Assembly: GCA_965243135.1 (NCBI GenBank)
Contig: OZ251539.1
Coordinates: 5,056,001 to 5,120,000 of the forward strand
Direction of reading: 5' to 3'
Length of the DNA: 64,000 nt
DNA from: Alphaproteobacteria bacterium
GTDB taxonomy: Bacteria; Pseudomonadota; Alphaproteobacteria; MPNO01; UBA830
Part shown: positions 923 through 18,338 of the stretch, piece by piece
Position numbering within the stretch: position 1 is the first letter of the stretch
Layout: the number at the start of each line of letters is the position of its first letter
Made by a program: the position numbers and the translations under genes
The notes under the pieces: generated by a model
Seen by the model: only the letters and a program-made list of their open reading frames with translations
Database searches by the model: none
Told to the model about the DNA's origin: nothing

Positions 923-1086
923 AAAACCCGGTCCGGCGCGACAGCCCGACTTTGGCGAACGCCGGAGCCTTGCACGGGGAGCCTCTCGTGGACACGCGTC
1001 GCCTCGGACGCGGGAAGGCGAATTGAAACCCGGGCGCCGCCGGGCTACGCTCGACCGCGTTCGAACATCCGGAAAAGGAGAATGAA

Positions 1087-1536
1087 ATGACCAAGCGGTA
1101 CCTGGGGGCGGTGCTGGCGACGCTGCTGATTTCCCTGCCGGCATCCGTACAGGCCCATTGCCAAATTCCGTGCGGCATCTACGACGACAACGCCCGGGTC
1201 GCGTCGATGCTCGAAGACGTCGCGACGATCCAGAAGGCCGTTTCGCAGATCGCGAACCTCGCCGGCAAGACCGATGCGCAATCGCAGAACCAGCTCGTCA
1301 GATGGGTCGTGAACAAGGAGCAGCATGCCCAGCGGATCATCGCCACGATCAGCGACTACTTCTTGACCCAAAGGGTCAAGGCGTCGCAGGCGGACTATGC
1401 CGAGCGCCTCCGGAAGCACCATGCGGTGATCGTCGCCGCCATGCGCGCGAAACAGAACGCGGGCGCGAAAATGGTGGCGGAATTGAAAACCGCCGTCCAG
1501 GCGCTCGAGCCGTACTACCCCGGACACAAACATTAG
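1087..1536 (+). CDS. sodN: Nickel superoxide dismutase precursor with Sec-type signal peptide
   Basis: Ni-hook HCQIPCGIYD directly after hydrophobic leader ending VQA; AAGGAG RBS upstream. Confidence 0.92.
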   Translation: MTKRYLGAVLATLLISLPASVQAHCQIPCGIYDDNARVASMLEDVATIQKAVSQIANLAGKTDAQSQNQLVRWVVNKEQHAQRIIATISDYFLTQRVKASQADYAERLRKHHAVIVAAMRAKQNAGAKMVAELKTAVQALEPYYPGHKH

Positions 1537-1550
1537 GAGCCGCGCCTCCT

Positions 1551-1631
1551 CGCTGCCTTCTGCAATTTCGAGCCTCCGGCGTCGTATGCAAAATCGTTCT
1601 TGCAAACGACGCCGGAGCGCCGCAGGCAGCG
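1551..1631 (+). terminator. Long imperfect hairpin 3' of sodN (terminator or RNA stability element)
   Basis: ctccggcgtcgtatgcaa (1574) pairs with ttgcaaacgacgccggag (to 1617) with one mismatch; outer cgctgcct/aggcagcg arms; no clear U-tract. Confidence 0.45.
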
Positions 1632-1721
1632 GGCGATCATCCTCGAAAAACAGAGGCTTTGAGTGACTTTTTCGCCGCAACGGACGGAGCCTGAGCCGTC
1701 CTCCCCGACGCCAAGCTCCCC

Positions 1722-2117
1722 ATGAAGGACTTGCGCCCGCCGCTTCGAGGCGGCCTGCCCGCATTCCAGACAATTGGTGACGAAGGGACCGCTTCTCTCG
1801 TTGAAGCAACAGATGTTGTGGAAATTCACGAAAACTGGATCGAAATGAGAAAATTCGAGTTCGACGACAACCTATATATTGCCGACCCTCCATTGCATTT
1901 TCGGGTGAAATTTGATTTGGAAAGTAAACTGTACGATCTTCGAGGCGAATTCGGAATTATTTTGGGTTCTCGGTCGCGGATTGAATTAATGAAGGACTTG
2001 AACGATACGCTTCGCGTGCTGTGGAATGAATATGCCAAGGAAAACCCTGAAAGATTGTCCGGAGATGCTCGGGATTTGCGAGACGAAATAAATAATAGAT
2101 TTCGAAAATGGTCTTGA
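1722..2117 (+). CDS. Hypothetical protein, probable HicB-like antitoxin partner
   Basis: Low-GC ORF overlapping the start of a HicA-like gene; beta-beta-beta-alpha-like pattern FRVKFDLESKLYDLRGEFGIILGSRSRIELMKDL; true start uncertain. Confidence 0.5.
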   Translation: MKDLRPPLRGGLPAFQTIGDEGTASLVEATDVVEIHENWIEMRKFEFDDNLYIADPPLHFRVKFDLESKLYDLRGEFGIILGSRSRIELMKDLNDTLRVLWNEYAKENPERLSGDARDLRDEINNRFRKWS

Positions 2118-3159
2118 AACGTAGAATGGTTCAATCTTCAATCACCGATTGAACGAAAAGAATTTGTAAAGGAAGACGACGGACACAAATACTTCATACA
2201 CAATAAATTTGACGAGATAATTACGTCGGCACGAACCATGATATCTCAGTGTGCCGTGGCAAGGCGCTTTCGTGGGTGCGAATCCCACCCAACAACTGTC
2301 GTTCCGGTCAGCTAGGGCGGTTTACGGAGGTAACGATGTAGATTGAAGCACTCTGGAAAAAAGGGCGGCGAAGGCCGCCCAGTGAACATGCGGGCCGAAA
2401 CGAGCAGTGAACCAGGCCTCGAAACGGGTAATGTGGGAGCTGACCCTCCTGAGATTAGGGGAATGACGGTCGGGAAGAGAACGACGGAAGCACCGACCGT
2501 TTCCGCCGGGGTAGTGATGTCGGCACGCATGGAAGATGAAGGAAGCAGCAACACAGGAAACTCTGCCGGTGACGCGCACGAGTCAACCGGAACCCCGCGA
2601 GGGGCAGGCCGGGCCGGCGGGGTGGCGGAGAGGCCCGTAGTGTAAGGCCGGCGGAGGAAAAGGGCGCGAGGAAGGGCACCGCAGGGGAGAAGGGGCTATG
2701 CCTAACAACCGACTACATGTCAGAGATCCCGGAAGCGCCGCAAGCGAAGAAACCCGGTCGAGAGGCCGGGGCCGTCGAGGCGTAAACAAGCTTGGCGACG
2801 GAAAGCGGGAACAGGCGTAAATGGGAGACGGTGCGACTCCCGGGTCTGGAAGACCGGCCGTTCCGGGAACGCTGCCAATTCATCCGTGGGCGAGACGCAT
2901 GGCTGGAGGCGCGGGAAACCCGCACGTCCGGTTCGGAGAGCGGGGACTGGAAACGTGGCCACGGAAGCCGGACTGAGGCCCGGAGCGAAAACGACGGAAC
3001 CCGGACCCTAACGCTAACGCGCTAGTCCTCGACTCTACCGGAAGAGGGAACGCAGATATCGGTGATGGTCGGATGGTAATATTGGAACCAGAAAGATATT
3101 TGAATGCAAAAATAGACGAGGATTTAGATTTGCCTATATCATTCTGTACAACAGATTAG
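2108..3159 (+). pseudogene. HicA-like toxin gene, frameshifted near 2150 and interrupted by a group II intron
   Basis: MVLKRRMVQSS, then after a +1 shift ERKEFVKEDDGHKYFIH...ARTMIS; joining 2248 to 3039 gives SH-GRGNADIGDG, a HicA-like SHG..DIG motif. Confidence 0.65.
2249..3038 (+). mobile_element. ORF-less (IEP-deleted) group II intron, 790 nt
   Basis: 5' GTGTG; EBS1 TGAGAT (2450-2455) in a stem loop complementary to exon end ATCTCA (2243-2248); DV-like gcgggaaacccgcacgtccggttc at ~2900-2934; DVI stem ggggactgg/ctagtcctc with bulged A at 3032; 3' end ...ctcgactctAC. Confidence 0.88.
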
Positions 3160-5650
3160 GATCGGCTTCTTCGCCACGGTATATCGCAAGAATTTCATCC
3201 GATATTTTTGCCATTGTCTTCATTTTACCTTTTTCCCATGTGCCGTTACTTTTGCAATGATCTAATCTCTTTATTATCTCTTGAGTGATTTCCGAATCGT
3301 CGTCCAGAGCAATATTTCCCATCGATTTCACTCGGGCCAACCCGCCAAGCAAGAGAAGAGCATACCGCATTTGTAGATGCGCTTCCATTTTCCATCTGTC
3401 CGGCATAATTGGATCATCCTTTATTTCCGATATCTTTTTCCACGCTATCTCCGCGAGCTTCTCGATCCAATCCGTGCGCCGGTTCAGAAGCTCTCCCGCT
3501 GTTCGTCGGCGAGCAAGAAGGTGGCTAAGGCACGCGAGCGCGTCGCACTCGAACGGTTTGTCCTCGTCGTCAAGAGCACCCCGGATCGCTCGCCGCATTC
3601 TTTCTTCATCAACAACTGCTCGCCCTAGACCATGCAGAATCGCCCTGTGTGCCGCTTCGTGCGTATATTCCACCGTGCGCCGAGCGCTCTCGATTCCCCA
3701 AACCGCATCAAGCAATAGATCCAGAAGCTCACCGGGACATTTCGCAAAAGTCCAGCTCGGAACGGTGTGCAACCGGTTTCGGGCCTTTATTCCAATATCT
3801 TGATCAAATCCCTGCCTGTACCACCTCAACAAAGTGCGCACCCCTACTATCATCACCTCATTCAGATCCCGTTCCGCTAGCACCCGCTGTTCGGCGGTCC
3901 ACCCTGACGATTCGTTCGCTGGCGGGAGATCACCATCCGTTCCCACAGCATACCGTTGGTTTACAGGAGGTTTCCCACGCGGCTTGCACAACCATTTGTA
4001 CAAGTAGTCCCGTTCTTGATCGGTAATCGCATCTTGCCCGCTCTTTCTGCAACGGTTTGCAGCATCCTTAAGCATCGTGGCATGAGCCGTTAATTCTCCA
4101 TTTTCCCACCACGCTTCTTCCGCAGCTCTATAGTGCACAAGGTGAGGAACAACGGACATGATATCTTTCGCCTTTGGACGGAACACTATTTTTTTCGGTT
4201 CTTCACTCCATGGCCTGTAGGTTCGCGAGGTGATCTCTATTCTCGCGTATCCGGTAGCGGGCTGTTGCACGGCGACGATCATAACATCGTGATCACGTTC
4301 GGTCGTCTCGATCTCGATCCGCTCACTGTACCTAGTCGCACCTTTTCGGAGCGGAACCATAAGTTCCGATTTCCCTTTCTCTAATTTGAGACCTTCACTC
4401 ACTTTCTTCGCTCTGTCAGCTGGTGTTCGGTAAGGTTCGCCCGCCCGTACAACTTCATTCTCACAAATAAGAGACAATTGTTTTTTCCGCCTTTTCTTTC
4501 CTTGAATGACCGTAAGGGAAAGCCCTTCCAAGTGATCAAACCACGGTGTTTCACCCTGTTCAATCGACCTTGCGGCAAGGAGCGCACCCCGGCTTCCCGC
4601 ATAGGGGGGCGCATTCAGCGGCTCTCGTCCATCTTTCCTCAAACTCTTCTCTAGCGCCTCCGTAACGCTCTTCCCAATGGGGCTCCATACAATTACCGTA
4701 TTCACATCCTCTAGGTTTTCGGCAGCATCTGTTGGCTCCTGCGCGTTATCCACGGTCCCCGGTGCAACCATTTTAATCCACTTTCCGCCTTCGTTGCGGA
4801 TCCACGCGTCCTCCGACCCGCCGCTTGCCCAGTGTTCGATCGCCCGGGTTTGTTGCTCCACCTTGTCCGCGTCGCGCCATGGAGTGATTTGCATCCGAAT
4901 CGTCTCGCATATCCAGTTCCACCCAGTCAGCCATGGGCGGATATCCTGGGGGCCTTTCCTTACTGGCAAGATGCGTCCTGTTTTCTCGTCTTTTTTCAGA
5001 CGAAATACATGCGTTCTGATCTCATTTCCGTAGCTAACGATGACGCCTACGCTCTCCTTTTCCATCAATGCCGGCATTCTTTCGAGCATTGCCAACGCTA
5101 CGCTCACCGAATCCCACACCAAATGAACTTTCGTCCCTCCAAGCGCTCTCCTGCCAAGCGCTTCTAACACCCTCGCTTGAACGACCTCGGTCATCTCTAA
5201 ATCGTCTGGAATGCAAAATCCCGCATTTCTCGTGATGCTTCGCGCTCCCTCCCTGCAACCGATAGCGCTTTGCACGCCCGCAAGGAGCACATCGCTAGCG
5301 GAAATTTTTTGCTCTTCGTCCTCTCCTGTGTCCTTTATCAGTAGATGATCCGACTCGTTGGCAACTTCTTCGCTCTCGACCTTCCTGATCTCGCGCCAAG
5401 CGTCCGCCGTTTCACGCCGTCTCGCCAGATTTCCTTTCTCTCCAAATTCTGATCCCCGTCCAAAAATGGTGGAGATCGCCCCTAAGCCGGCAACTAGCTT
5501 TGTCTTTCCGTCTTTCGCTCTGTCGGCCCGTACAGTGACACTTCGGGGACCCTCGTTACGTTCCCTACGTTGTGCGTCCATGGCGTCGCCTTCCGTCGCC
5601 ACGTAGTCCCATAACCCATTAAGGTCTATTCCCGCGATTTCGCGGCTCAT
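3134..5650 (-). CDS. 838-aa hypothetical protein; N-terminal actin/Hsp70-like ATPase fold and helical C-terminus; last gene of McrBC-variant operon
   Basis: ATG at 5650 overlaps upstream stop (ATGA); GIDLNG resembles Hsp70 phosphate-1 GIDLG; FCIPD and HLVWDSVSVAL resemble Hsp70 ITVPA and connect-1 segments. Confidence 0.6.
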   Translation of the reverse strand: MSREIAGIDLNGLWDYVATEGDAMDAQRRERNEGPRSVTVRADRAKDGKTKLVAGLGAISTIFGRGSEFGEKGNLARRRETADAWREIRKVESEEVANESDHLLIKDTGEDEEQKISASDVLLAGVQSAIGCREGARSITRNAGFCIPDDLEMTEVVQARVLEALGRRALGGTKVHLVWDSVSVALAMLERMPALMEKESVGVIVSYGNEIRTHVFRLKKDEKTGRILPVRKGPQDIRPWLTGWNWICETIRMQITPWRDADKVEQQTRAIEHWASGGSEDAWIRNEGGKWIKMVAPGTVDNAQEPTDAAENLEDVNTVIVWSPIGKSVTEALEKSLRKDGREPLNAPPYAGSRGALLAARSIEQGETPWFDHLEGLSLTVIQGKKRRKKQLSLICENEVVRAGEPYRTPADRAKKVSEGLKLEKGKSELMVPLRKGATRYSERIEIETTERDHDVMIVAVQQPATGYARIEITSRTYRPWSEEPKKIVFRPKAKDIMSVVPHLVHYRAAEEAWWENGELTAHATMLKDAANRCRKSGQDAITDQERDYLYKWLCKPRGKPPVNQRYAVGTDGDLPPANESSGWTAEQRVLAERDLNEVMIVGVRTLLRWYRQGFDQDIGIKARNRLHTVPSWTFAKCPGELLDLLLDAVWGIESARRTVEYTHEAAHRAILHGLGRAVVDEERMRRAIRGALDDEDKPFECDALACLSHLLARRRTAGELLNRRTDWIEKLAEIAWKKISEIKDDPIMPDRWKMEAHLQMRYALLLLGGLARVKSMGNIALDDDSEITQEIIKRLDHCKSNGTWEKGKMKTMAKISDEILAIYRGEEADPNLLYRMI

Positions 5651-7197
5651 CGTTTCCCCGCCCGGGCTTGGAGGTGATCGACAGCCTTCTGGATCGAATT
5701 CAGAACGCACCCCAGACCGCTCTCAGGTCTCATTCGTTCCGCAAAGACGCGACATTCGTGCCGTTTCCCACCAGTGCTCATTCTCCGGGGATTTTCTTGC
5801 GGCATCCTTTCCTGCACAGTGAGAACCCCAATGTCATACGGTATCTCTTCACGTTCATTTCTGCTAGCGAGTTCCTCCATTCGATCAAGGTATCGAAGCT
5901 CTCCCTGCCCCGTTCCCAAAACATAGAATGCTAACTTTGCTTCCTTTTTGGACGCATTTTCAATCATACCCAGCGTGATCGCACAACAAGAGCCAGATGG
6001 CGCTTCGCTGTTCGGCTCTACCCCGCTGGCTTGTATCTCCATCCACCATCCCGTGTCGGGCTGGATAAGCAAACAGAACGGTTTCTGTTCCAACGCAAGC
6101 CAGCGTCCTTTTTCCTGTCCTGTCCGAAGAACCACTGGCGGCTTCACCACGGGCGTCCAACTTTCAAAGTTCATCACCGCGACGCTCACGGCTAGCAACC
6201 CCAACTCGTTCCATGCCTCCGCTTGCCAGCTCCAAAGCTCATCTTCGAGATCCATTCTCTGAATCAGTTGTTCCCTAGCTGTCCAGATCCGTCGGTAGTC
6301 AGGGTTCATCCTCAGAACTTGATTGGGTTCCGCTCCCGCCTCAAGCTTTCTGACCCCCGCTTCCCTCAACGCCGCCGCAACGTTTGTGCACTCTCTCCCC
6401 CACTGAATGAGCTGTGCATCTATGCTCCATCCTTGCGAGAGCCGCTGGACTTCCCGCGCGGTCATCTCCGCGAAATCTCGCACCACTCGGTTTTCGCGGG
6501 TGTTGTGGTTCGTTATCCGCATTTCCGTGAGAATGCCCCGCTTGGCGCGCTCCTCTATTGTGCGGCCGGGTTTCCCTGCTAGCCATTTGATGCTTTTTCG
6601 GCTGGTTCGTTCCACGCGCTCTGGAGCTACGATCCGTTCCTCCCGCGCAAGCACTGTTTTCGGATTTCGCCCGATTCGGCGAAGCACCAGCGGCAGTTCC
6701 CGTGCATGCTGTTTCAGTACTTCCGTCCTTGGCTCATAATCACCAGAGAGTTCGCGTTCAAACGCCGCCTTAGCCTGCGCCCATTCTCTACCCGCTCCCC
6801 AAGCCCTCGTTTCCTCAATCTGGCGAATCCGCGCCGCCACGTCGATATGTGCTCCTCTTTTACAACCTGCATCGTTGAAGTCGTCTTCGCTCCACCTGAT
6901 CGTGTCAACGGAGCCGTTCGCGCTCACATGCTGCACAGGGGGCGTTCTTGGCCGGGGAAGCGGAATCCGCCAAGCCGTTCGTTCTTCGTCATCACTCGTC
7001 GCAACCCATTCGGGTTGGAGCGCTCGGAATCCGTTCAGCCGAGGTTTTGCGTCTGCAGCCGTAACCGCGAATACTCCAGTAAGCGCACTGTTTTCTGACC
7101 CGTCGGCCTCTGTTTCCGGCCCCGCGTTCGCCGGCCTACCCGCGAGTGCACGTGTGAGGTTTCGCAGTCCCCTCGTAACCTGAATATCTTGGGGCAT
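5647..7197 (-). CDS. DUF2357-domain McrC-like protein
   Basis: HNTRENRVVRDF and PNQVLRMNPDYRRIW are typical DUF2357 motifs; abuts the McrB-like gene. Confidence 0.75.
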   Translation of the reverse strand: MPQDIQVTRGLRNLTRALAGRPANAGPETEADGSENSALTGVFAVTAADAKPRLNGFRALQPEWVATSDDEERTAWRIPLPRPRTPPVQHVSANGSVDTIRWSEDDFNDAGCKRGAHIDVAARIRQIEETRAWGAGREWAQAKAAFERELSGDYEPRTEVLKQHARELPLVLRRIGRNPKTVLAREERIVAPERVERTSRKSIKWLAGKPGRTIEERAKRGILTEMRITNHNTRENRVVRDFAEMTAREVQRLSQGWSIDAQLIQWGRECTNVAAALREAGVRKLEAGAEPNQVLRMNPDYRRIWTAREQLIQRMDLEDELWSWQAEAWNELGLLAVSVAVMNFESWTPVVKPPVVLRTGQEKGRWLALEQKPFCLLIQPDTGWWMEIQASGVEPNSEAPSGSCCAITLGMIENASKKEAKLAFYVLGTGQGELRYLDRMEELASRNEREEIPYDIGVLTVQERMPQENPRRMSTGGKRHECRVFAERMRPESGLGCVLNSIQKAVDHLQARAGKR

Positions 7198-9099
7198 CTA
7201 TCCGATCTGCCGTCCAGTCCAGGCGAACGTACCCACGCTGTGCATCGTGTTCGTCGCGTTCGAAACCGCGTTTGCCAGATCCTGATCATCGAGATTCTGA
7301 TCGCAGATCTTGCTCAGCCGGTCCAATGCGTCCGCCGCTCCTTGATTGGCACCGTCGATTCCGGTGAGCTTCGGTAGCACCCTCATCTCGACTTGGTCCA
7401 CAAGGGCATTCCTCCAGTCCTTTGAAGGATAGCGCTCAATGTATCGCGCCATCGCCTGTCCCATCCGGTGACCGAAGGGCCGACCAACTCTTTCCATCAC
7501 TTCTTCGTTAATCAAAGTGATTGTCTGCCGAGCTTCACTTTCCATTTCCCGCCCTTCGCACCATCTCCGCCAATTCTCATCTTTGAGGGCTTTCTCTCCT
7601 CCCTCTCGTCCGTTCTTATCCAAGCCAGTCCCCATAGCTGTAAATTGGATCTCCTGCGGCCTGGGAAATCGGATAACGTTTGAGCGGTCAATCACCTTGT
7701 CCGAAAGCGTCTGCGTGCTTTCGTCCTCATTCATCGTGCCCACCCACAGGATTCGCTCCGAGGGATAGATTCTTTCCGCTTCTTCACCTTCTCCATGCGG
7801 CACGTCGAGCTCGATCATCGTCTCTGGACGTGGTCCGCCTTCTTTAAATTCTTCTCGCGCCTGCCTCAGCTCCAAGCGACTCAAGAAGTCTGAAAAATAG
7901 TACTCGGTACGAGCTAAGTTCATTTCGTCTAGCAATACCATCGCCATACGGCCGTCTTCTTGCTCGTTCTTCCGTCCTTGGTCGAAGTTCCACAAGAGGC
8001 GCGCAAGCTCTGTAGCCTGATACCTTCCATGCATGTAATCATACGAACCAACCAAGTCGATCGGGCTATCCCACCGCGGTTGCACAGGCACAACCAATAA
8101 ATACATTCCCATCGCCTCGGCATACGCCCGCGGTAGCTGCGTCTTCCCCGTGCCGCTAATTCCAGCAAGAACGGTAAGCGGCGACACCTCCGCTATTTTG
8201 AGCGAGGTATGCAACCTCCACACCATTCTTTGGTTGAACTTGAGGCCCCATTGACGAATGAGGCTTATCGCCTCGTCTAGCGCTTCGTTTTCGTCTTGAA
8301 TTGGTTTGTCTGATCTATAGCCTCCTACACAACCCGGTTGTCTGGTAAGGTTTCCTAGGCGGGTTTTACCTTGTTTATTTTCACCTAATTTTCCGCCCAT
8401 CTCTCCTTTCATCTTCTCCACCTCTCTTTCGTAACTTTCTTTTCTGACTTCCGCAGACCGGGCTCTATCTTCCGCTTCATTGGCTCTTTTTTCCGCAGAT
8501 TCTGCTACTTCCTTTTTCCGTTCCAATTCCGATTCAATAGAAGCCAATTCTTTGCTTTTTTCTGCTATTTCTTTTGCAAATTTATTGATTTCATCTTCTA
8601 GAATCTTCTTTTCTTCCTGAGCCGATTTCTTCCATTCGATAAACTGTTCTTTTTTGGGATCGAATTCTTCCACATACTTTTGAAGTCTATTCTTCTTTTC
8701 TTCCATCTCGGCCATCTCCTTTTCCATTCGGTCCCGCTGTTCCTGAACCATTTCACCCTTCCTTGCGATCTCCCGAATCTTCAATTCTTCTTCTTTCGCA
8801 AATTGGTCGAGCGCTTTGCGCTGTTCGCCCAGACCAGAATATTCTTCCTCGATCTCTTTTATTTCCCGGGTAAGTTCTTCAATTTTTTTTGCCAAATTTT
8901 CGCTTGTCTCGGCCTTTCCTCGAACTTCCTCGTACTTCTTTTCGGCCTCGTTAATGCGTCTCGCCGCCTGATCGTATCGATCCTCCATTGACGAACCATT
9001 TCCACTTCGTCTGTGGAAGGTGAGCCATGCTACGGTCCAGCCTCCTGCCAATGCGGCCCCTACGACACTCGCCACAGTCCACGGGATTTCCCAGATCAT
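7198..9099 (-). CDS. McrB-like AAA+ GTPase with N-terminal TM helix and long coiled coil
   Basis: Walker A GISGTGKT, Walker B MVLLDEMNLA, GTMNEDEST (NxD variant), KVIDRS arginine finger; hydrophobic residues ~5-27; E/K-rich heptads ~35-230. Confidence 0.85.
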   Translation of the reverse strand: MIWEIPWTVASVVGAALAGGWTVAWLTFHRRSGNGSSMEDRYDQAARRINEAEKKYEEVRGKAETSENLAKKIEELTREIKEIEEEYSGLGEQRKALDQFAKEEELKIREIARKGEMVQEQRDRMEKEMAEMEEKKNRLQKYVEEFDPKKEQFIEWKKSAQEEKKILEDEINKFAKEIAEKSKELASIESELERKKEVAESAEKRANEAEDRARSAEVRKESYEREVEKMKGEMGGKLGENKQGKTRLGNLTRQPGCVGGYRSDKPIQDENEALDEAISLIRQWGLKFNQRMVWRLHTSLKIAEVSPLTVLAGISGTGKTQLPRAYAEAMGMYLLVVPVQPRWDSPIDLVGSYDYMHGRYQATELARLLWNFDQGRKNEQEDGRMAMVLLDEMNLARTEYYFSDFLSRLELRQAREEFKEGGPRPETMIELDVPHGEGEEAERIYPSERILWVGTMNEDESTQTLSDKVIDRSNVIRFPRPQEIQFTAMGTGLDKNGREGGEKALKDENWRRWCEGREMESEARQTITLINEEVMERVGRPFGHRMGQAMARYIERYPSKDWRNALVDQVEMRVLPKLTGIDGANQGAADALDRLSKICDQNLDDQDLANAVSNATNTMHSVGTFAWTGRQIG

Positions 9100-10244
9100 T
9101 GCTCCGTTCCCCCGCTAGGCACACTCGTTCGCTTGTCTTCCAAACGCTTGAGCGTTATCTCTAATTTTGTACTCGCCTCTGAAAGTTCTTCCATTATCTT
9201 CATGTATTCGCGTTCCAGACGTTCGACATCGTCCTTCGCAGCCCGGCCGATTCCTTGTAGACGTTTCAATTTCGACTCGATCTCCCGCCTTTCACTTTCG
9301 AGGCGCGCAACCTCTTCGCGAACCGCTCGTAACTCTCCTTTGGCATCGTCCAACTCACGCTCAGTTATGTCGAGATCCGCCCTTGCACGCTGGTTTTGTT
9401 TCACAAGACGTTCCCGTTTCAATTCCAGACGTTTGACGTCACCTGCTTTAGTTTGCGCTTCCTGTTCTGCGTTCTGTATTCGAGTTCGCAATTCTTTCTC
9501 GCGCACCGACAGATCGTTGACGCGCGCATTCCGCGTGTTCTCCTCTGTCTTGAGGTCTTCCACCGACCTCAAGAGGCGTTCTTTCCGTTCGTCTAGCACC
9601 TTCGCATCGTCAATCGTCTTGCGCGCTGTTTCGGCCCGTATTCTCAGGTCTTCTTCCTCTTGCCGCAGCGACGGTAAAACTTCTTCAAATCTCCGTTTTT
9701 CCGAATTGAGATCTTCAATTTGTCCTCTAACACGTTTTTGCTCCAATTTTAGACGTATGACGTCATCTGCTCTGGTTTGCGCTTCCTGTTCTGCGTTCTG
9801 TACTTGAGTTTGTATTTCTCGTTCGCGCGCTATTAGGTCGTTGATACGCGCATTCCGCGTGTTCTCCTCTGTCTTGAGGTCTTCCACCGACCTCAAGAGG
9901 CGTTCTTTCCGTTCGTCTAGCACCTTCGCATCGTCAATCGTCTTGAGCGCTGTTTCGGCCCGTATTCTCAGGTCTTCTTCCTCTTGCCGCAGCAATGGTA
10001 AAACTTCTTCAAGTTTTCCCCTATCTGATTTCAGCCCTTCTACCTGGGTCAGCAGCTCGCTGCGCTGAACCTCAAGCGCATCAATCGCAGCACGCTGCCG
10101 GGCAGCGTCGATACTCTCGCTTACGACAATGGTTGCGGGGATGCCCACGAGCAGCAATCCCAATGCGGCACCCAATCCAACCCTGACTCGGACTTTCTTC
10201 ATGTCCTGGCTGACGTGCTTGAATATGTCTGCGTCACTCATCAA
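9096..10244 (-). CDS. Membrane-anchored long coiled-coil protein with internal 108-aa duplication
   Basis: VGLGAALGLLLVGIPATIVV hydrophobic segment followed by E/R/K/L heptads; stop overlaps the next start (ATGA). Confidence 0.8.
   Translation of the reverse strand: MMSDADIFKHVSQDMKKVRVRVGLGAALGLLLVGIPATIVVSESIDAARQRAAIDALEVQRSELLTQVEGLKSDRGKLEEVLPLLRQEEEDLRIRAETALKTIDDAKVLDERKERLLRSVEDLKTEENTRNARINDLIAREREIQTQVQNAEQEAQTRADDVIRLKLEQKRVRGQIEDLNSEKRRFEEVLPSLRQEEEDLRIRAETARKTIDDAKVLDERKERLLRSVEDLKTEENTRNARVNDLSVREKELRTRIQNAEQEAQTKAGDVKRLELKRERLVKQNQRARADLDITERELDDAKGELRAVREEVARLESERREIESKLKRLQGIGRAAKDDVERLEREYMKIMEELSEASTKLEITLKRLEDKRTSVPSGGTEQ
9410..10012. repeat. Two-copy in-frame tandem duplication, 324-nt period
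   Basis: ~9520-9688 is nearly identical to ~9844-10012 (EEVLP.LRQEEEDLRIRAETA.KTIDDAKVLDERKERLLRSVEDLKTEENTRNAR); looser similarity extends beyond. Confidence 0.9.
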
Positions 10245-11037
10245 GTGCCTCCTTGATTTTCATTATGCATCCTGCGGGATCCTTTCGAATTTCGTGATCC
10301 CAGAATCGCAGCGTCTTCCATCCGGCGGCTGCCAAGCAATCGTCACGCCAGCTATCCCGATCTACCCGCTTACCTTCTTCGTCCGTGTGCCATATTTTCC
10401 CATCGGCTTCAACGCAGAGCTGGCGTTCTCCCTTCGTCAGTGCGAAATCTATCCGGTAACGTCCGACCTGCATCTGCCGTTCAGCGTGGAGGCCGGCTTG
10501 TTCCATGGCTTCGCTGAGCTCGTCCTCCAGTCCAGATTCCGTGACCGGTCCGCTCCTTCCTTTGAGAGCGTCCAAGAAAGCGCGGCTTCGCCAATCCGCC
10601 GGCTTCTGGAAGAGGCTCGGGTTTCCAACGCAAATGAGAGCATGGGTTGTAGCCCGCCTCGCGTCCCACATCCGTTTGGCGAACTCGCGAGGATCCGTGA
10701 TTACATCAGGAAGGGCTATATACCGAACGCCGACAACATTTCGCGCCATCGCCGTCCCGACAGTTCCGATATATCCGGCCCACTCCCGTCGGCGCTTCTC
10801 GCGCTCGCTATCGTGTTCTTCCCGATCTACGAAGTAGAGTAGTGGTTTACGCACCCACGGAACTACCTCCTCTGCCGTCCATGCCTCGTTTTGCCGCCAG
10901 CGCCCAGTCGGGCCATAGCGCACCGGGCCTTGGCCAGTTGCCGGCTCCAGTCCTTCATACCACGGCCTCTGCGGCGCCTGCCGCTGACGTCTACGCCGGA
11001 GTTCACTCGTCCTTATTCCAAGCGGCGTGAGTTTCAT
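10234..11037 (-). CDS. DUF559/Vsr-like PD-(D/E)xK endonuclease with a degenerate helicase-like N-terminal part
   Basis: ESGLE...QMQVGRYRIDFAL...VEADGKIWH...RDDCLAAAGWKTLRFW; ATG at 11037 chosen because the longer ORF overlaps the neighbouring gene. Confidence 0.8.
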   Translation of the reverse strand: MKLTPLGIRTSELRRRRQRQAPQRPWYEGLEPATGQGPVRYGPTGRWRQNEAWTAEEVVPWVRKPLLYFVDREEHDSEREKRRREWAGYIGTVGTAMARNVVGVRYIALPDVITDPREFAKRMWDARRATTHALICVGNPSLFQKPADWRSRAFLDALKGRSGPVTESGLEDELSEAMEQAGLHAERQMQVGRYRIDFALTKGERQLCVEADGKIWHTDEEGKRVDRDSWRDDCLAAAGWKTLRFWDHEIRKDPAGCIMKIKEALDE

Positions 11038-11059
11038 TTGATTGCTGAATTCAAGCGCG

Positions 11060-11446
11060 TCAGGCTTGACGGCCGCCCTTGGCGAGCCAGTCGAGTCTGA
11101 GGTCGAGCCTGTCGCCGAGCCACAACGGATACCAGGCATGATCCTTCCATGCGTCCCCCGCTTCGGGGTGAACGAGAATCACGAGCCCGTCGCGATTGAA
11201 CATTAACCAGGGAACGATCTCGGAAAACAGATCCTGATCGAACTCGATCTGGTACATGTCCACCGGATGCGGACCGACGGGCCGGTCGCGAAAACGTCCC
11301 ATGCGCACCCGTTCCGGCCACTTGCTCCATACCTTTTCCCGAAGCCGCGCCGCCTTCTCCCGCAAGGCGTCGTCGTCCCCGTAATAGACATGCGCATGGT
11401 AGCCCCGAATTTTCGTCTCGTCGCCATTTTCGAACCGTTCCGTCAT
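11060..11446 (-). CDS. DOPA 4,5-dioxygenase family protein
   Basis: GYHAHVYY, RPVGPHP, LVHP...DH..PLWLG motifs. Confidence 0.88.
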   Translation of the reverse strand: MTERFENGDETKIRGYHAHVYYGDDDALREKAARLREKVWSKWPERVRMGRFRDRPVGPHPVDMYQIEFDQDLFSEIVPWLMFNRDGLVILVHPEAGDAWKDHAWYPLWLGDRLDLRLDWLAKGGRQA

Positions 11447-14595: not shown

Positions 14596-16179
14596 ATGGC
14601 GCAAGGACGACCAGCGCACACGGACCCGGACAACGGCGGCTCCGCGACCGAGGCTCAGCTTTGGAAAATGTCCGACGCGCTGCGCGGCCCCATGGATGCC
14701 GCCGAATACAAGCATGTCGTTCTCGGTTTGATTTTTCTGAGGTGCATTTCCGCTGCCTTCGAAGAAATTCGCGCACGCTTGAAAAACGAACGAGCGCAGG
14801 GAACGGATCCGGAAGACCCGGACGAATATCGCGCAGAGAACGTATTCCGGGTTCCCGAGGAGGCCCGCTGGACCCACCTGCAGTCGCAAGCGCGACAACC
14901 CGACATCGGACAAATTGTCGACGCCGCCATGGCAAGCGTCGAACGCGATAACCCGGGGCTCAGGGACGCGTTGCCCAAGGGCTACGCCAGACCTGCGCTC
15001 GACAGGCAGCGCTTGGGGCAACTCATCGATCTTGTCGGGACGATAAGGGCAGGAAACGAAGAGGCGCGTTCCGAAGACGCGCTCGGTCGCGTCTACGAGT
15101 ATTTTCTCTCGCGCTTCGCGAGCGCAGAAGGAAAGAAAGGCGGAGAGTTCTACACTCCCCGGTGCGTCGTCAAGCTACTGGTCGAGATGCTGGAACCGCA
15201 TCAAGGCCGTGTGTACGATCCTTGCTGCGGATCGTCGGGCATGTTCGTGCGGTCGATTGAATTCATGCGCGCGCGCGCCGTCGACAACAGGGCAACGCCT
15301 TCGGCCGGAACCGACATCTCAATCTATGGTCAGGAGCTGGATCATGCGACATGGCGCCTGGCCCTGATGAACCTCGCCATCCGCGGCATTGCCGGGCGGA
15401 TCGAACGCGGCGACAGCTTTCACGATGATCGGCACCCCGACCTGAAAGCGGATTTCATCATTGCCGCTCCCCCGTTCAACGTCTCGGACTGGGGCGGCGA
15501 GCGCCTTGCGGACGACCGGAGATGGCGATACGGCGTGCCGCCTGGGGGGAATGCCAACTTCGCTTGGGTTCAGCATATAGTTCACCATCTGGCGCCCGGC
15601 GGAGCGGCGGGTTTCGTGCTCGCCAACGGCTCGATGTCCTCAAGTCAGGCGGCGGAGAGCCTGATCCGCAAAAACCTGATCGAGGCGGATATCGTGGACT
15701 GCATGGTCGCGTTGCCCGGCCAGCTATTCTACTCGACGCGGATTCCCGTATGCTTATGGTTTCTGCGGCGCGGACGAGGCGACGATGGGCGCGGTAGCCG
15801 AACGAGGCGAATCCTGTTCATCGACGCTCGCAAGCTCGGCCGCATGGTAAATGGCGCGAACTTCACCCGCCGCGAGTTGACGGACGAGGACATCGCCCGC
15901 ATCGCCGACACCTACCATGATTGGGCCAAAGCCTCGTCGACGGACTACGCCGACGTGCCCGGGTTCTGCAAAAGCGCGGATTTGAGCGAAGTGCGCGAGC
16001 GCGATTATTCGCTCGCGCCCGGACATTACGTCGATACGGACCCTGAAGAGCGAGACGGAGATCCTTTTGACGGCAAGATGAAACGATTGGTGGTTCAGCT
16101 CCGTGAACAACGGGCCGAGGCCAAGAAGCTGGATGCAATCATCGAGGGCAACCTGAAAGCCATGGGGTTCCGCCTCTGA
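14596..16179 (+). CDS. hsdM: Type I R-M methyltransferase subunit with altered catalytic motif (APPF)
   Basis: [42 protein letters not shown]; motif IV reads IIAAPPFN. Confidence 0.9.
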
Positions 16180-16825
16180 AGAATTCCCGACGAATTTTCA
16201 GAGGTATGGAACGGCGAAATGCGTGTATGGAAGATTTGAGATAACGCTTGGGCATCGGCGAGAACGTCATGATAATTTTTGGACGATCGACGCCGGCATG
16301 CCGAAAACCCTCCAAGAAGCCGTCGCCGAATCCGGCGTCCGCCGTTTCGGAAAGGAGGCGACGGGAATGGCGGAAGTCGTCGCCTTCGCTTCGCATGCGG
16401 GTGCGCGGGACCGGCCAACGTTCCGTCGGGACCGCATTGCCGACGCCCCGACAGACATGCCGCCGACATGTCGTCGCTCAACCGTCAAGGCAGTGCGGCG
16501 TCCCGGATTTCCTCTTCGCGCCGGCCGCGATGACCGTCGTTGATCGCAACTCTCTGCGCGCGCCCCGCGACCATGAACGCCGGGGACTGTGCAGCCGGCG
16601 TTGCGCAAACCGACGCCGGCCGGTCAAGGGATGGCGCAGGGTCGAGACCTACGACGTAAATCGTTTCCGCGACTTGACCTCAGACATGTTTTTGCCCTAT
16701 TTTGCTGTCTTGTGCACGGAGTAAGGCGGCGTCGGTTCGGCAAAGGACGGAATTTTCTTGGGCTCGCCCATCAAGAGTCAGGAACCGTCCGGCTGAAAAT
16801 GCGAATCTCAGGGAACTCTTCGAAA

Positions 16826-17254
16826 ATGAACCTCGATTACTCGTCTCTCGAAAAAGCCGTATCCCAGTTAAGGAAGAGTTTCGAATACGTCCATTCGGAC
16901 CTAGCCAGGAATGATTCCGATCTGCGAGATCAATTCCGCGGCGCCACCGTTCAAGCGTTCGAGTGTAGTTACGAATTGGCGATCAAGATGATCCGGCGCC
17001 AGCTCGCGGGAATCGTCGCCAATCCCGATGAGCTGCGCGCATCGGATTTCGCCGACGTGATGCGGCAGGCGGCGGACGCGAAGATTATCCGGGACGCTCC
17101 GTCCTTCATGCGCTATCGCGAGCTGCGAAACCTGACTTCCCATACTTACAATGCCGATCAGGCCGAAGCGACGGTCGCCGCCGTGAATGATTTCCTGTCC
17201 GATATGGCTTTCCTTCTGGAGAATCTGGAGAAAAGAAATCGTGAGGCCTGTTGA
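16826..17254 (+). CDS. HEPN-domain toxin (HI0074-like nucleotidyltransferase substrate-binding family)
   Basis: QAFECSYEL and intact RNLTSHTY (R-X4-H-X-Y); ATG at 16826. Confidence 0.88.
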   Translation: MNLDYSSLEKAVSQLRKSFEYVHSDLARNDSDLRDQFRGATVQAFECSYELAIKMIRRQLAGIVANPDELRASDFADVMRQAADAKIIRDAPSFMRYRELRNLTSHTYNADQAEATVAAVNDFLSDMAFLLENLEKRNREAC

Positions 17255-18338
17255 TATCGCCCCTGGAGATCTTGAAACGGTTCAACTCATTCTTCGCAAA
17301 CATGTGCCGGATTTCGAGGTGCGGGCATTTGGATCGCGCGTTTCCTGGACCGCTCGCGATACTTCGGATCTGGATCTGGCGATAATTTCCGACGAACCGT
17401 TGGAAATTGCGGCTTTGGCCGAAATAAGGGAAGATTTTATACAATCGAACCTCCCGTTTCCTGTAGATGTCGTGGATTGGTCCACCGCGTCCGACGGTTT
17501 CCGGAAAATCATTGAAAGCGATTCCGAAATTCTTCGCCCGGGCTGCAATGACAAAACCTTTATTGCAGAAACGTGCGCTTCTCTTAAGCGCAAGCTGGTA
17601 TTGAACCTACGGATGAACGGAACGCTCGAAGCGATATTGCGCACGGCGTTCAGCGACTGGTTTGTCGATTACGGCCCGGTCCGCGCAAAATCAAACGGCG
17701 AGTCGGCATATCTTCCCGCGCGGCTCTGGTCGCTTTTCCCGGATCGCTTTGAGGACTCTGAAATCGGAGAGGCGCCGGAGGAATGGCGGCTGAAGTCTAT
17801 AGCGACCGTTGCCGATTGCATTGACGGCATCGTCGATTCAAGCGAAGTCGACGAAGGTCTCCCGTATATTGGGCTTGAACATATGCCTCGCGATTCGATG
17901 TTTATCTCGGAATGGAAAAGCGCGGGAGAAGCGACAGGAACGAGATTGAAATGCAATGCCGGAGATTTTCTTTTTGGAAACCGGGAACCCGGTTTTCGTA
18001 ACTTTGGAATAGTTCTAGTCGATGGAACTTGTTCGGCGGATTTAGCAATTGTCGCGCCAAAAACGAATTATTTTGATGGAATGATGTCATCCCTCTTTTT
18101 GGCTCACAAATTGATCGAATTTACAGACGGAGAAGTCGCGATGGCGAAGGATTTGCGTGCAAATTGGGAATCGTTCTCTCGACGAGAAATTGCTGTCCCT
18201 ACGTCGTCTTTGATGGCCGAATTCGGCAAATTTGCGCAGCCAATACTAGACCTGATCGTTGCGAACGTTAGGGAATGCCATTTGTTGAATGAAGTTCTCC
18301 GCACGAGGACTTTTGAAATGCGAAGCGCCCTTTCTTGA
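17241..18338 (+). CDS. MNT nucleotidyltransferase antitoxin fused to a half HsdS (single TRD)
   Basis: GTG start overlapping the HEPN gene; AFGSR...SDLDL...VDVVDW MNT motifs, then HsdS conserved region LNLRMNGTLEAI...WFVDYGPV...LFPDRFEDSEIGEAPEEW and TRD-like PYIGLEHMP...GDFLFG. Confidence 0.82.
   Translation: MRPVDIAPGDLETVQLILRKHVPDFEVRAFGSRVSWTARDTSDLDLAIISDEPLEIAALAEIREDFIQSNLPFPVDVVDWSTASDGFRKIIESDSEILRPGCNDKTFIAETCASLKRKLVLNLRMNGTLEAILRTAFSDWFVDYGPVRAKSNGESAYLPARLWSLFPDRFEDSEIGEAPEEWRLKSIATVADCIDGIVDSSEVDEGLPYIGLEHMPRDSMFISEWKSAGEATGTRLKCNAGDFLFGNREPGFRNFGIVLVDGTCSADLAIVAPKTNYFDGMMSSLFLAHKLIEFTDGEVAMAKDLRANWESFSRREIAVPTSSLMAEFGKFAQPILDLIVANVRECHLLNEVLRTRTFEMRSALS

Follow-up and report, generated by a model that had tools for sequence, protein, structure and literature searches.

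A probable helicase-less variant of the Type III-B CoCoNuT systems in a five-gene alphaproteobacterial operon

Nearly everything known about CoCoNuTs, a large group of systems derived from McrBC (Type IV) restriction, comes from prediction; Bell et al. (2024; eLife, PMC11090510) define them as that clade of McrB GTPases with an NxD motif which carries coiled coils. The present text concerns a CoCoNuT-like operon, probably a helicase-less variant of the Type III-B group, within a stretch of 64,000 nucleotides of an alphaproteobacterial genome (assembly GCA_965243135.1, contig OZ251539.1, positions 5,056,001–5,120,000), which is called the window below and whose own numbering is used for its coordinates. 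Five open reading frames (ORFs), all of them intact, lie on the minus strand at 3134–11037 with abutting or overlapping ends: (i) vsr (10234–11037; 267 amino acids, aa), a short Vsr/DUF559 nuclease gene; (ii) cnuA (9096–10241 or 10244; 381 aa), for a protein with a transmembrane (TM) segment and a coiled coil; (iii) cnuB (7198–9099; 633 aa), which joins a TM segment and a coiled coil to an McrB-like GTPase; (iv) cnuC (5647–7197; 516 aa), for an McrC-like protein with DUF2357 at residues 160–302; and (v) cnuD (3134–5650; 838 aa counted from ATG). The junctions are overlaps of 4–11 nt or abutting ends. For instance, the cnuA stop and the cnuB start share 4 nt, as do the cnuC stop and the cnuD start, and cnuB and cnuC abut at 7197/7198. 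The whole cassette measures 7.9 kb and contains one predicted nuclease. An earlier note on this DNA had reported five overlapping or abutting minus-strand genes in a block of lower GC content, and both observations hold, as all five ORFs were found at their positions and the GC content of the operon genes is 0.50–0.59, against 0.60–0.65 in the flanking host genes.

The same arrangement recurs in other genomes. Among 400 other genomes of the class, searched with a CnuB cut-off of E ≤ 1e-10, six carry a match, three of them strong, and the distribution of CnuB is thus sporadic (7 of 401 class genomes, counting the window's own). All three strong matches stand in loci with a Vsr-bearing gene, a coiled-coil gene, cnuB, cnuC, and cnuD; the Vsr-bearing protein of the three class relatives has 1047–1130 aa, with the Vsr domain at its end, and one of the three has it as two separate ORFs. 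A wider scan, of one genome per species, gave 541 relatives, and the best 80 loci were kept. Within these 80, as judged by hidden Markov models (HMMs) built from four loci, a gene for a helicase fused to Vsr lies upstream of cnuB in 52 loci (split in five) and downstream in 4, a short Vsr gene is present in 7, and 17 were left unclassified, mostly since they are cut by contig ends; among these 17, one locus, L072, has the helicase without Vsr, and in three (L054, L061, L070) no Vsr or helicase gene lies within reach. The large majority of the 80 share the order Vsr-bearing gene, coiled-coil gene, cnuB, cnuC, cnuD, so the gene order noted earlier for the window is conserved elsewhere.

The longest ORF of vsr reaches 11139, into the 3′ end of the host DOPA-4,5-dioxygenase gene (11060–11443; Pfam E 1.3e-32). 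Because of this overlap, the start was placed at the ATG at 11037, which agrees with the starts in relatives. The C-terminal part of the product (about residues 166–267, nt 10237–10542) is a Vsr/DUF559 nuclease domain of the PD-(D/E)xK-like type, matching Pfam MTES_1575 (E 1e-16) and DUF559 (E 8e-14), and a Vsr profile (A2) matches a solved DUF559 “endonuclease-like protein” (PDB 3hrl_A, E 2.7e-8). Asp197, Glu210, Asp212, and His217 show no or almost no variation in 10 sequences. In the defence library, the domain matches best the C-termini of PDC-S37, Hhe, and ProA. Since these residues are conserved and CnuC lacks a nuclease motif (see below), the operon has no predicted active nuclease besides the short Vsr protein.

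The rest of the protein (about residues 1–165) is predicted to be a degenerate RecA2-like region. In Type III-B systems, as described in the main text of Bell et al. (2024), the corresponding gene encodes CnuH, a superfamily 1 (SF1) helicase fused to a Vsr-like nuclease. This UPF1-like helicase, the hallmark of the type, is absent here, and the Vsr domain is present. The 267-aa protein has no match to the helicase HMM and no Walker A or B motif. In hhalign comparisons with 48 full-length CnuH sequences, residues 104–266 of the window-type proteins align with CnuH 877–1051 (E 3e-30), and the profile of a sister family of short Vsr proteins (46 sequences) aligns with CnuH 749–1051 over 260 columns (E 1.3e-29). 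This stretch of CnuH comprises the RecA2 half and the Vsr domain; the helicase motifs are not conserved in the short proteins, which have no counterpart of RecA1 (with Walker A/B), the helical insert, or the OB fold. Thus, the short protein appears to be a CnuH remnant made of a degenerate RecA2 stub and a nuclease domain. A weak likeness of its first ∼50 residues to the N-terminal winged helix-turn-helix (wHTH) of CnuH (E 0.023, probability 2%) was considered as a sign of wHTH origin and dropped, as a deeper profile prefers the plain alignment with the C-terminal third.

The short form is not confined to the window. Seven of the 80 loci (L011, L012, L030, L036, L044, L057, and L066) have a short Vsr gene without a helicase HMM match, followed by the same four genes in the same order, which bears out the earlier description of the operon as a reduced variant with no intact helicase. 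The proteins are 272–330 aa long; the longest ORF of L011 has 531 aa, and the equivalent GTG start gives 269 aa. Eight short Vsr proteins align end to end, with equivalent start points. The sister (L036-type) family comprises 55 clusters at 90% identity, mostly of 285–340 aa (coverage ≥90%), and the window type comprises 8 clusters, with gene calls of 267–269 aa. The upstream neighbors of the short-Vsr loci vary (HipA, an AbiEii-like AAA_21 protein, AAA_16, DUF4268, and proteins without assignment), and no conserved substitute helicase travels with the cassette there. On these comparisons the short Vsr protein is a form that a lineage has conserved under selection, not local damage.

Phylogenies of CnuB place the window among these loci. 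A careful tree was built from 32 CnuB GTPase domains and a quick tree from 81 rows. In them the window CnuB branches from within loci of the full H-A-B-C-D architecture; it is this architecture, not sequences labelled by the authors of the type, that serves as the Type III-B anchor. A clade of 11 (support 94/96) unites the eight short-Vsr loci, the window included, with the short contig L047 and the helicase-bearing L013 and L014. The short-Vsr rows fall on one side of one branch of the maximum-likelihood tree, in 67% of bootstrap trees, and their two sub-lineages are deep, with stem lengths of 1.0 and 1.9 changes per site. L061, which was counted with the helicase-bearing loci in this tree although no Vsr was seen in it, branches far away from the short-Vsr clade and leaves the count unchanged.

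The closest relative is L011, whose CnuB is 68% identical to that of the window over its full length and 78% over the GTPase domain. At the protein level, CnuA is 43% identical and the other four are 65–70% identical. The nucleotide similarity between the two loci runs exactly from the vsr ATG to the cnuD stop. The approximate ratio of nonsynonymous to synonymous substitution rates (dN/dS) against L011 is 0.124 for vsr as a whole (0.09 for residues 1–100, 0.16 for residues 101–165, and 0.125 for the Vsr domain), 0.37 for CnuA, 0.10 for CnuB, 0.175 for CnuC, and 0.106 for CnuD.

CnuB begins with an uncharged 24-mer (residues 5–28, nt 9016–9087) followed by His-Arg-Arg, which is taken as a TM segment, and continues with a coiled coil (about residues 35–250) that matches SMC, Rad50, and JetC coiled-coil models. 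Its GTPase domain has a Walker A motif (GISGTGKT, Gly313–Thr320, nt 8140–8163), a Walker B motif (LLDEMN, Asp391–Glu392), and an NxD motif (GTMNEDE, residues 454–460), with Asn457-Glu-Asp459 at nt 7723–7731. It matches Pfam AAA_5 (E 1.1e-4) and the PADLOC model PDC-M26A (E 7.6e-37). Both the Walker A motif and the NxD pattern G[TSA]xNxD[ED] are present in 81 of 81 CnuB sequences. In hhalign, McrB of E. coli K-12 aligns with a profile built from 41 CnuB GTPase domains (probability 89.7%, E 1.8e-6), with Walker A and B in register and NED opposite NTAD. The kinship with McrB and its NxD motif that the earlier note had claimed are therefore upheld.

Under the criterion of a hydrophobic 19-mer with a Kyte-Doolittle score of at least 1.6, a TM segment stands at the extreme N-terminus of CnuB in 75 of the 80 loci, mostly with scores above 2.4; the exceptions are four truncated ORFs and L011 (1.3). 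The hydrophobic segment of the window CnuB aligns with the strong TM segments of its relatives. Lys and Arg are more frequent on the C-terminal side of the segment in 74 of 77 loci, and the tail before the helix has 0–9 residues without Lys or Arg (nine examples). Owing to this bias and to the short uncharged tail, CnuB is predicted to lie with its N-terminus outside and its C-terminus inside, so that the GTPase would be cytoplasmic.

CnuA has a clear hydrophobic segment (19-mer maximum 2.22) at residues 22–42, counted from the TTG at 10244 (nt 10119–10181), followed by ∼340 aa of coiled coil with SMC/Rad50-type matches and no other domain. A TM segment is found in CnuA of 57 of 60 loci. The Lys/Arg bias is ambiguous here: over 58 loci, the N-terminal side is richer in 34, the C-terminal side in 14, and neither in 10. 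In relatives, CnuA can be as short as 280 aa or exceed 600 aa. Within the window cnuA there is an internal tandem duplication, with two 300-nt copies at 9405–9704 and 9729–10028 (minus strand) that are 324 nt (108 codons) apart and 87% identical in nucleotides, by which the coiled coil has been lengthened. This duplication is recent; Tandem Repeats Finder returned nothing for it, and it was found by a separate repeat search. The coiled coils that had been claimed for CnuA and CnuB are thus borne out by their SMC/Rad50-type matches. As for the membrane anchors, they are present on both proteins as the earlier note had it, but they are a family-wide trait and do not set this locus apart.

CnuC matches Pfam DUF2357 (E 2.3e-6) with 27.5 bits, above the cut-off of 23.3, which confirms the DUF2357 partner expected next to the GTPase. 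Its C-terminus lacks a conserved D…(D/E)xK motif, as no acidic or lysine column is conserved past residue ∼330 in an alignment of 68 sequences, and in the second short-Vsr sub-lineage this region is shortened further. The hhalign comparison with E. coli McrC is weak (E 0.022). Scans of the Pfam, NCBIfam, and PADLOC libraries gave no coiled-coil-type match for CnuC.

By position and HMM, CnuD is the homolog of the protein encoded at the cnuD site of related loci, and its family is rare, with 145 matches at E ≤ 1e-3 among 1.84 billion representatives. It is predicted to have a degenerate Hsp70-like nucleotide-binding domain at the N-terminus and helical repeats at the C-terminus. A G-x-D-L-N-G motif at its N-terminus aligns with the GIDLGT of Hsp70, and the DLGGG phosphate-2 motif is lost. 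A profile of 58 sequences with the window protein first (A7) matches nucleotide-binding domains of this kind in the PDB: of the 48 chains at E ≤ 10, 41 are named Hsp70 or Hsc70, and 1qqo, a further chain, covers the same stretch. The best match, 4gni_A (profile 99–349 on chain 120–400), is marginal at E 0.0023. Against 30 DnaK sequences, hhalign gives a collinear alignment of residues 2–439 on 1–440 (E 0.018). Of six further CnuD proteins scanned, two of which are also members of A7, one (from L084) reaches 21.8 bits with Pfam HSP70 in the same segment, where 20.6 bits is the cut-off. A six-frame PF00012 search of the genome returned only genes of the DnaK/HscA type. The Hsp70-like label previously given to the fifth gene is accordingly retained in part: the profile evidence speaks for it, and the protein itself has no match in Pfam, NCBIfam, or PADLOC. 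An Hsp70-like nature of CnuD is likely but not established.

A comparison with genomes of the same genus places the operon in a variable site. In one such genome, the DOPA-dioxygenase gene is followed ∼230 bp further on by a homolog of window ∼524–922; the two flanks adjoin there and, therefore, the segment from ∼930 to 11059 is absent. The absent segment holds a nickel superoxide dismutase (Ni-SOD) gene, a small ORF of low GC content, an element derived from an intron, and the operon. A second genome of the genus has a different insert, of 3.5 kb, at the same site. To judge by these alignments, the operon is situated in a variable insertion of roughly 10 kb. No integrase or boundary repeat was found at the insertion (no direct repeat of 10 nt or more at its boundaries), no tRNA gene lies in window 1–30000, and megablast of the operon against plasmids gave no match.

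Several known systems resemble the locus. According to the main text of Bell et al. (2024), Type III-B CoCoNuTs, found mostly in Alphaproteobacteria, encode besides CnuH (i) CnuA, a separate coiled-coil protein; (ii) CnuB, a coiled coil with a GTPase; (iii) CnuC, a DUF2357 protein with an inactivated nuclease and a beta-sandwich of immunoglobulin-like type at its N-terminus, the CnuC proteins of Types II and III being without a catalytic motif; and (iv) a separate, degenerate Hsp70-like CnuD (nucleotide- and substrate-binding domains) with HEAT-like repeats, with no TerY-P module. The window locus shares with this type a Vsr-type gene in first place, the separate CnuA, the coiled-coil NxD CnuB, the DUF2357 CnuC without a PD-(D/E)xK motif, CnuD as a gene of its own, and the overlapping frames. 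It likewise lacks a TerY-P triad (VWA/PP2C/kinase), as the variable segment has only the Ni-SOD gene, the small ORF, and the intron element besides. In contrast, the helicase of CnuH (wHTH, RecA1, helical insert, and OB fold) is missing, and only the equivalent of the last ∼260–300 residues is kept. The Type III-B likeness proposed in the earlier note thus agrees in gene order and homology with the published description, the helicase apart. As one defining feature of the type fails, the locus represents a new conserved variant of a predicted system and not a plain member of it; it is filed as a helicase-less variant because the helicase that defines Type III-B is absent. The same main text calls the helicase association “nearly completely conserved” and mentions no helicase-less Type III-B form, and supplementary files 1 and 3 of that paper may list such forms or TM predictions. 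TM helices come up in the main text in connection with CoCoPALM, EssC, ShdA, and a four-TM protein and nowhere with Type III-B.

McrBC of E. coli K-12 (EcoKMcrBC) has in common with the locus an AAA+ GTPase with Walker A, Walker B, and N-x-(x)-D motifs in register, as well as an adjacent DUF2357 partner. Unlike McrBC, the locus has NxD instead of NxxD, a TM segment and a coiled coil in place of the DNA-reading N-terminal domain, no McrC nuclease motif, and three extra genes (vsr, cnuA, and cnuD). CoCoPALM, named by Bell et al. (2024) ahead of a detailed description, also fuses an NxD McrB to a TM and coiled-coil (FtsB-like) N-terminus. What defines it is linkage to signal-peptidase/pilus-assembly genes together with a coiled coil on McrC; the present locus has no signal-peptidase or pilus-assembly gene in or beside the operon and no coiled coil on CnuC, and it includes cnuD and vsr. 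Obs, a seven-gene Type II CoCoNuT-like locus of Pseudomonas aeruginosa, belongs to the same CoCoNuT superfamily and is reported to protect against PP7 and LeviOr01, which are RNA phages, and the DNA phage MPK7 (bioRxiv 10.64898/2026.04.06.716636). It was the only member with a measured phenotype found in the literature search. Unlike the present locus, Obs is described in that preprint without a separate CnuA or CnuD, and the part of its text that was available reports no membrane anchor. Through its CnuB the operon also resembles the PADLOC candidate system PDC-M26, the only gene of the five with a PADLOC model being cnuB; the literature search found no text on PDC-M26. Hhe, ProA, and PDC-S37 are alike in the Vsr domain, but they are large single helicase-nuclease proteins and not McrBC partners. 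The Cnu names themselves were found in that search only in Bell et al. (two versions) and in the YprA preprint.

Taken together, these data suggest that the locus is quite probably a complete, selectively maintained, five-gene helicase-less derivative of a Type III-B CoCoNuT that has kept the Vsr domain and a RecA2 remnant. Its products would form a membrane-tethered nuclease machine directed against phages or other mobile genetic elements. In such a machine, CnuB would be tethered to the inner membrane by its one N-terminal helix, with coiled coil and GTPase in the cytoplasm, as the sequence and the Lys/Arg bias indicate. By analogy with McrBC, CnuB presumably assembles into a ring like that of McrB, with the DUF2357 adaptor CnuC stimulating it. 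The Vsr protein would be the effector nuclease recruited to this CnuBC machine, with the dead RecA2 stub as a possible docking module rather than a motor, and CnuA and CnuD could provide the scaffold and the sensor or target-binding module, following the proposal of Bell et al. (2024). The system might then restrict the nucleic acid of invading phages or plasmids near the membrane without ATP-driven helicase activity. A role in defence would fit the sporadic distribution, the variable site, the carriage of homologs on plasmids, the neighbors of the toxin-antitoxin or defence type in related loci, and, by analogy, the Obs phenotype.

Several results weigh against this interpretation. On the side of expression, vsr starts 22 nt past the stop of the host gene without a Shine-Dalgarno sequence, and a promoter and terminator scan of the minus strand found no sigma-70-like promoter site, with counts at or below the shuffle expectation. 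A good Shine-Dalgarno sequence precedes both cnuA and cnuB (AAGGAGG ahead of the cnuA ATG at 10241), and transcription of the operon may depend on read-through or on a promoter within the upstream gene. As to selection, dS against L011 is 1.1–2.3, near saturation, which leaves the dN/dS values approximate. A single origin of the short form is weakly supported (68/24), and the TM segment of the window CnuB scores 1.3, below the usual hydropathy threshold. HMMER searches of the PDB gave only the Rad50 coiled coil for the full CnuB profile, no McrB match for the GTPase domain alone or for the 41-sequence profile, and no McrC relative for the CnuC profile. For CnuD, the 4gni_A match is marginal, a profile of 74 sequences (A3) had no Hsp70 match in the PDB, Pfam HSP70 recognizes 0 of the 56 members of A4 and 0 of the 58 of A7, and the hhalign E-values against DnaK span 0.018–0.099 with probabilities of at most 2.5%. 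Finally, the literature search found no experimental test of any Type III CoCoNuT.

The missing start signals also favor a different account, in which a Type III-B CoCoNuT is decaying: three quarters of cnuH, at its 5′ end, would have gone with the promoter in a deletion at the insertion boundary, leaving the other genes headed for loss. Besides the position of the vsr ATG and the want of a Shine-Dalgarno sequence and of a minus-strand promoter-like site, it draws on the disruption of cnuH elsewhere, by splitting in L014, L028, and L050 and by IS21 in L016/L018 and on a Rhizobium tropici plasmid. Yet the same short protein with an equivalent start heads the operon in seven other loci of differing context, relatives have gene calls of 267–269 aa, the sister family runs to 55 clusters, all five ORFs are intact with dN/dS of 0.09–0.37 against L011, and the homology with L011 spans exactly the vsr ATG to the cnuD stop. 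A local 5′ truncation of cnuH, which had been entertained as the origin of the short gene, was overturned by these seven siblings, the shared starts, the 55-cluster family, and the low dN/dS, and decay of the locus is very improbable. It is also conceivable, but quite unlikely, that the five genes are functional and depend on a helicase supplied in trans as a split Type III-B system. The candidate would be a 1065-aa SF1 helicase of the same genome, which is 33% identical to CnuH over query residues 613–1046 (E 4e-43), reaching the Vsr region, and the RecA2 remnant could serve as a docking surface for a partner that contains RecA1. However, this helicase is unlinked (∼1.4 Mb away) and more of the Mokosh type than a CnuH, and the short-Vsr loci have no conserved helicase gene upstream. 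The gene itself lies at G000:C1 ∼3629838–3633033 (L139 4839–8036, plus strand), and its best PADLOC matches are MkoA, MkoC, and PDC-S37.

An explanation outside immunity, namely a membrane-associated housekeeping or envelope machine of a CoCoPALM-like kind or one for chromosome or plasmid partitioning, would accommodate the fusion of a TM segment and coiled coil to an NxD McrB, which is also a CoCoPALM hallmark in Bell et al. (2024), and the annotation of plasmid homologs as “chromosome segregation ATPase-like” or “ParA.” Those public names are, however, generic coiled-coil and P-loop transfers. Moreover, the roughly 10-kb insertion has no signal-peptidase or pilus gene, the system is sporadic (7 of 401 class genomes), lower in GC content, and placed in a variable site, the relatives' neighbors are of the toxin-antitoxin or defence type (HipA, AbiEii-like AAA_21), and a dedicated Vsr-type nuclease is present; such a function can hardly be credited. 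A further, unlikely possibility is that the proteins form a trans-membrane sensor, with CnuB N-out/C-in, CnuA N-in/C-out and its coiled coil in the periplasm, and a bare nuclease docked through RecA2. If this were so, envelope events of phage entry would be relayed by TM-TM contact to a cytoplasmic GTPase-nuclease, a relative of Type IV restriction would sense infection at the envelope and not by reading modified DNA, and a CoCoNuT/McrBC motor would work with a bare nuclease docked via a dead RecA2 stub.

Under the preferred reading, a helicase-less Type III-B derivative, the five-gene, 7.9-kb cassette with its single nuclease offers a practical route to the function of Type III systems, and as a natural helicase deletion it tests the dispensability of CnuH and the role of the RecA2 remnant. 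The family-wide anchors on CnuA and CnuB suggest that CoCoNuTs of this kind act at the inner membrane, the entry point of phage and plasmid nucleic acids, and such a site would change their mechanistic modelling. There is also an annotation gap, with public labels such as “hypothetical,” “AAA domain-containing,” “ParA,” and “chromosome segregation ATPase-like.” CnuB-like genes occur on 42 plasmid records, conjugative plasmids among them, where their labels read hypothetical, AAA, ParA, or “chromosome segregation ATPase-like.” In plasmids of Klebsiella, Enterobacter, and Raoultella they are labelled “chromosome partitioning protein ParA,” and in those of Synechocystis PCC 6803 “AAA family ATPase,” adjoining a DUF2357 gene. 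The CnuB-like plasmid genes of these four genera probably belong to CoCoNuT-type systems that go under generic names.

Of the 52 loci with cnuH upstream, five (L014, L016, L018, L028, and L050) have it disrupted. The ORFs are split, L028 shows an in-frame stop, and in L016/L018 there is a gap of 2.5 kb. On the R. tropici plasmid (L144, 78–5728), an IS21 element (istA/istB) lies between the genes of a 317-aa “hypothetical protein” and an “AAA domain-containing protein,” which is the layout of the two cnuH fragments of L016/L018; the IS21 element cuts cnuH. The pattern hints that the helicase may have been repeatedly lost or counter-selected. A different rearrangement is seen in L079, L082, and L088, where cnuC and cnuD make up a single fused gene of 977–1042 aa, with the helicase-Vsr gene downstream of it; in L088 the latter is partial because the contig ends there. 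This fusion resembles the Type III-A CnuCD in the main text of Bell et al. (2024), but with a Vsr effector. L041 and L068 have the helicase gene downstream and cnuC and cnuD separate.

Within the variable segment, the Ni-SOD gene is found at 1087–1536 (plus strand; Sod_Ni E 1.2e-37), and a 131-aa ORF of GC content 0.46 without a family match at 1722–2117 (plus strand). Directly past the cnuD stop, on the opposite strand, lies an ORF-less element of ∼0.8 kb derived from a group II intron (2242–3040, plus strand), with an Rfam RF02003 match at 2270–2405 (51.1 bits). The genome of the window has at least 8 near-full copies of this element at 84–87% identity. In other copies of the genome the 5′ and 3′ parts are ∼1.5 kb apart; these are presumably full introns with a reverse-transcriptase gene. 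A group II intron reverse-transcriptase gene likewise stands just downstream of cnuD on the R. tropici plasmid. Three host genes from the operon, a Type I restriction-modification region lies at 14596–18338 (plus strand). None of the neighboring ORFs scanned around its hsdM gene (N6_Mtase E 8e-101) was identified as hsdR, and within the same region hsdM is followed by a nucleotidyltransferase/substrate-binding pair (NTase_sub_bind, Polbeta).

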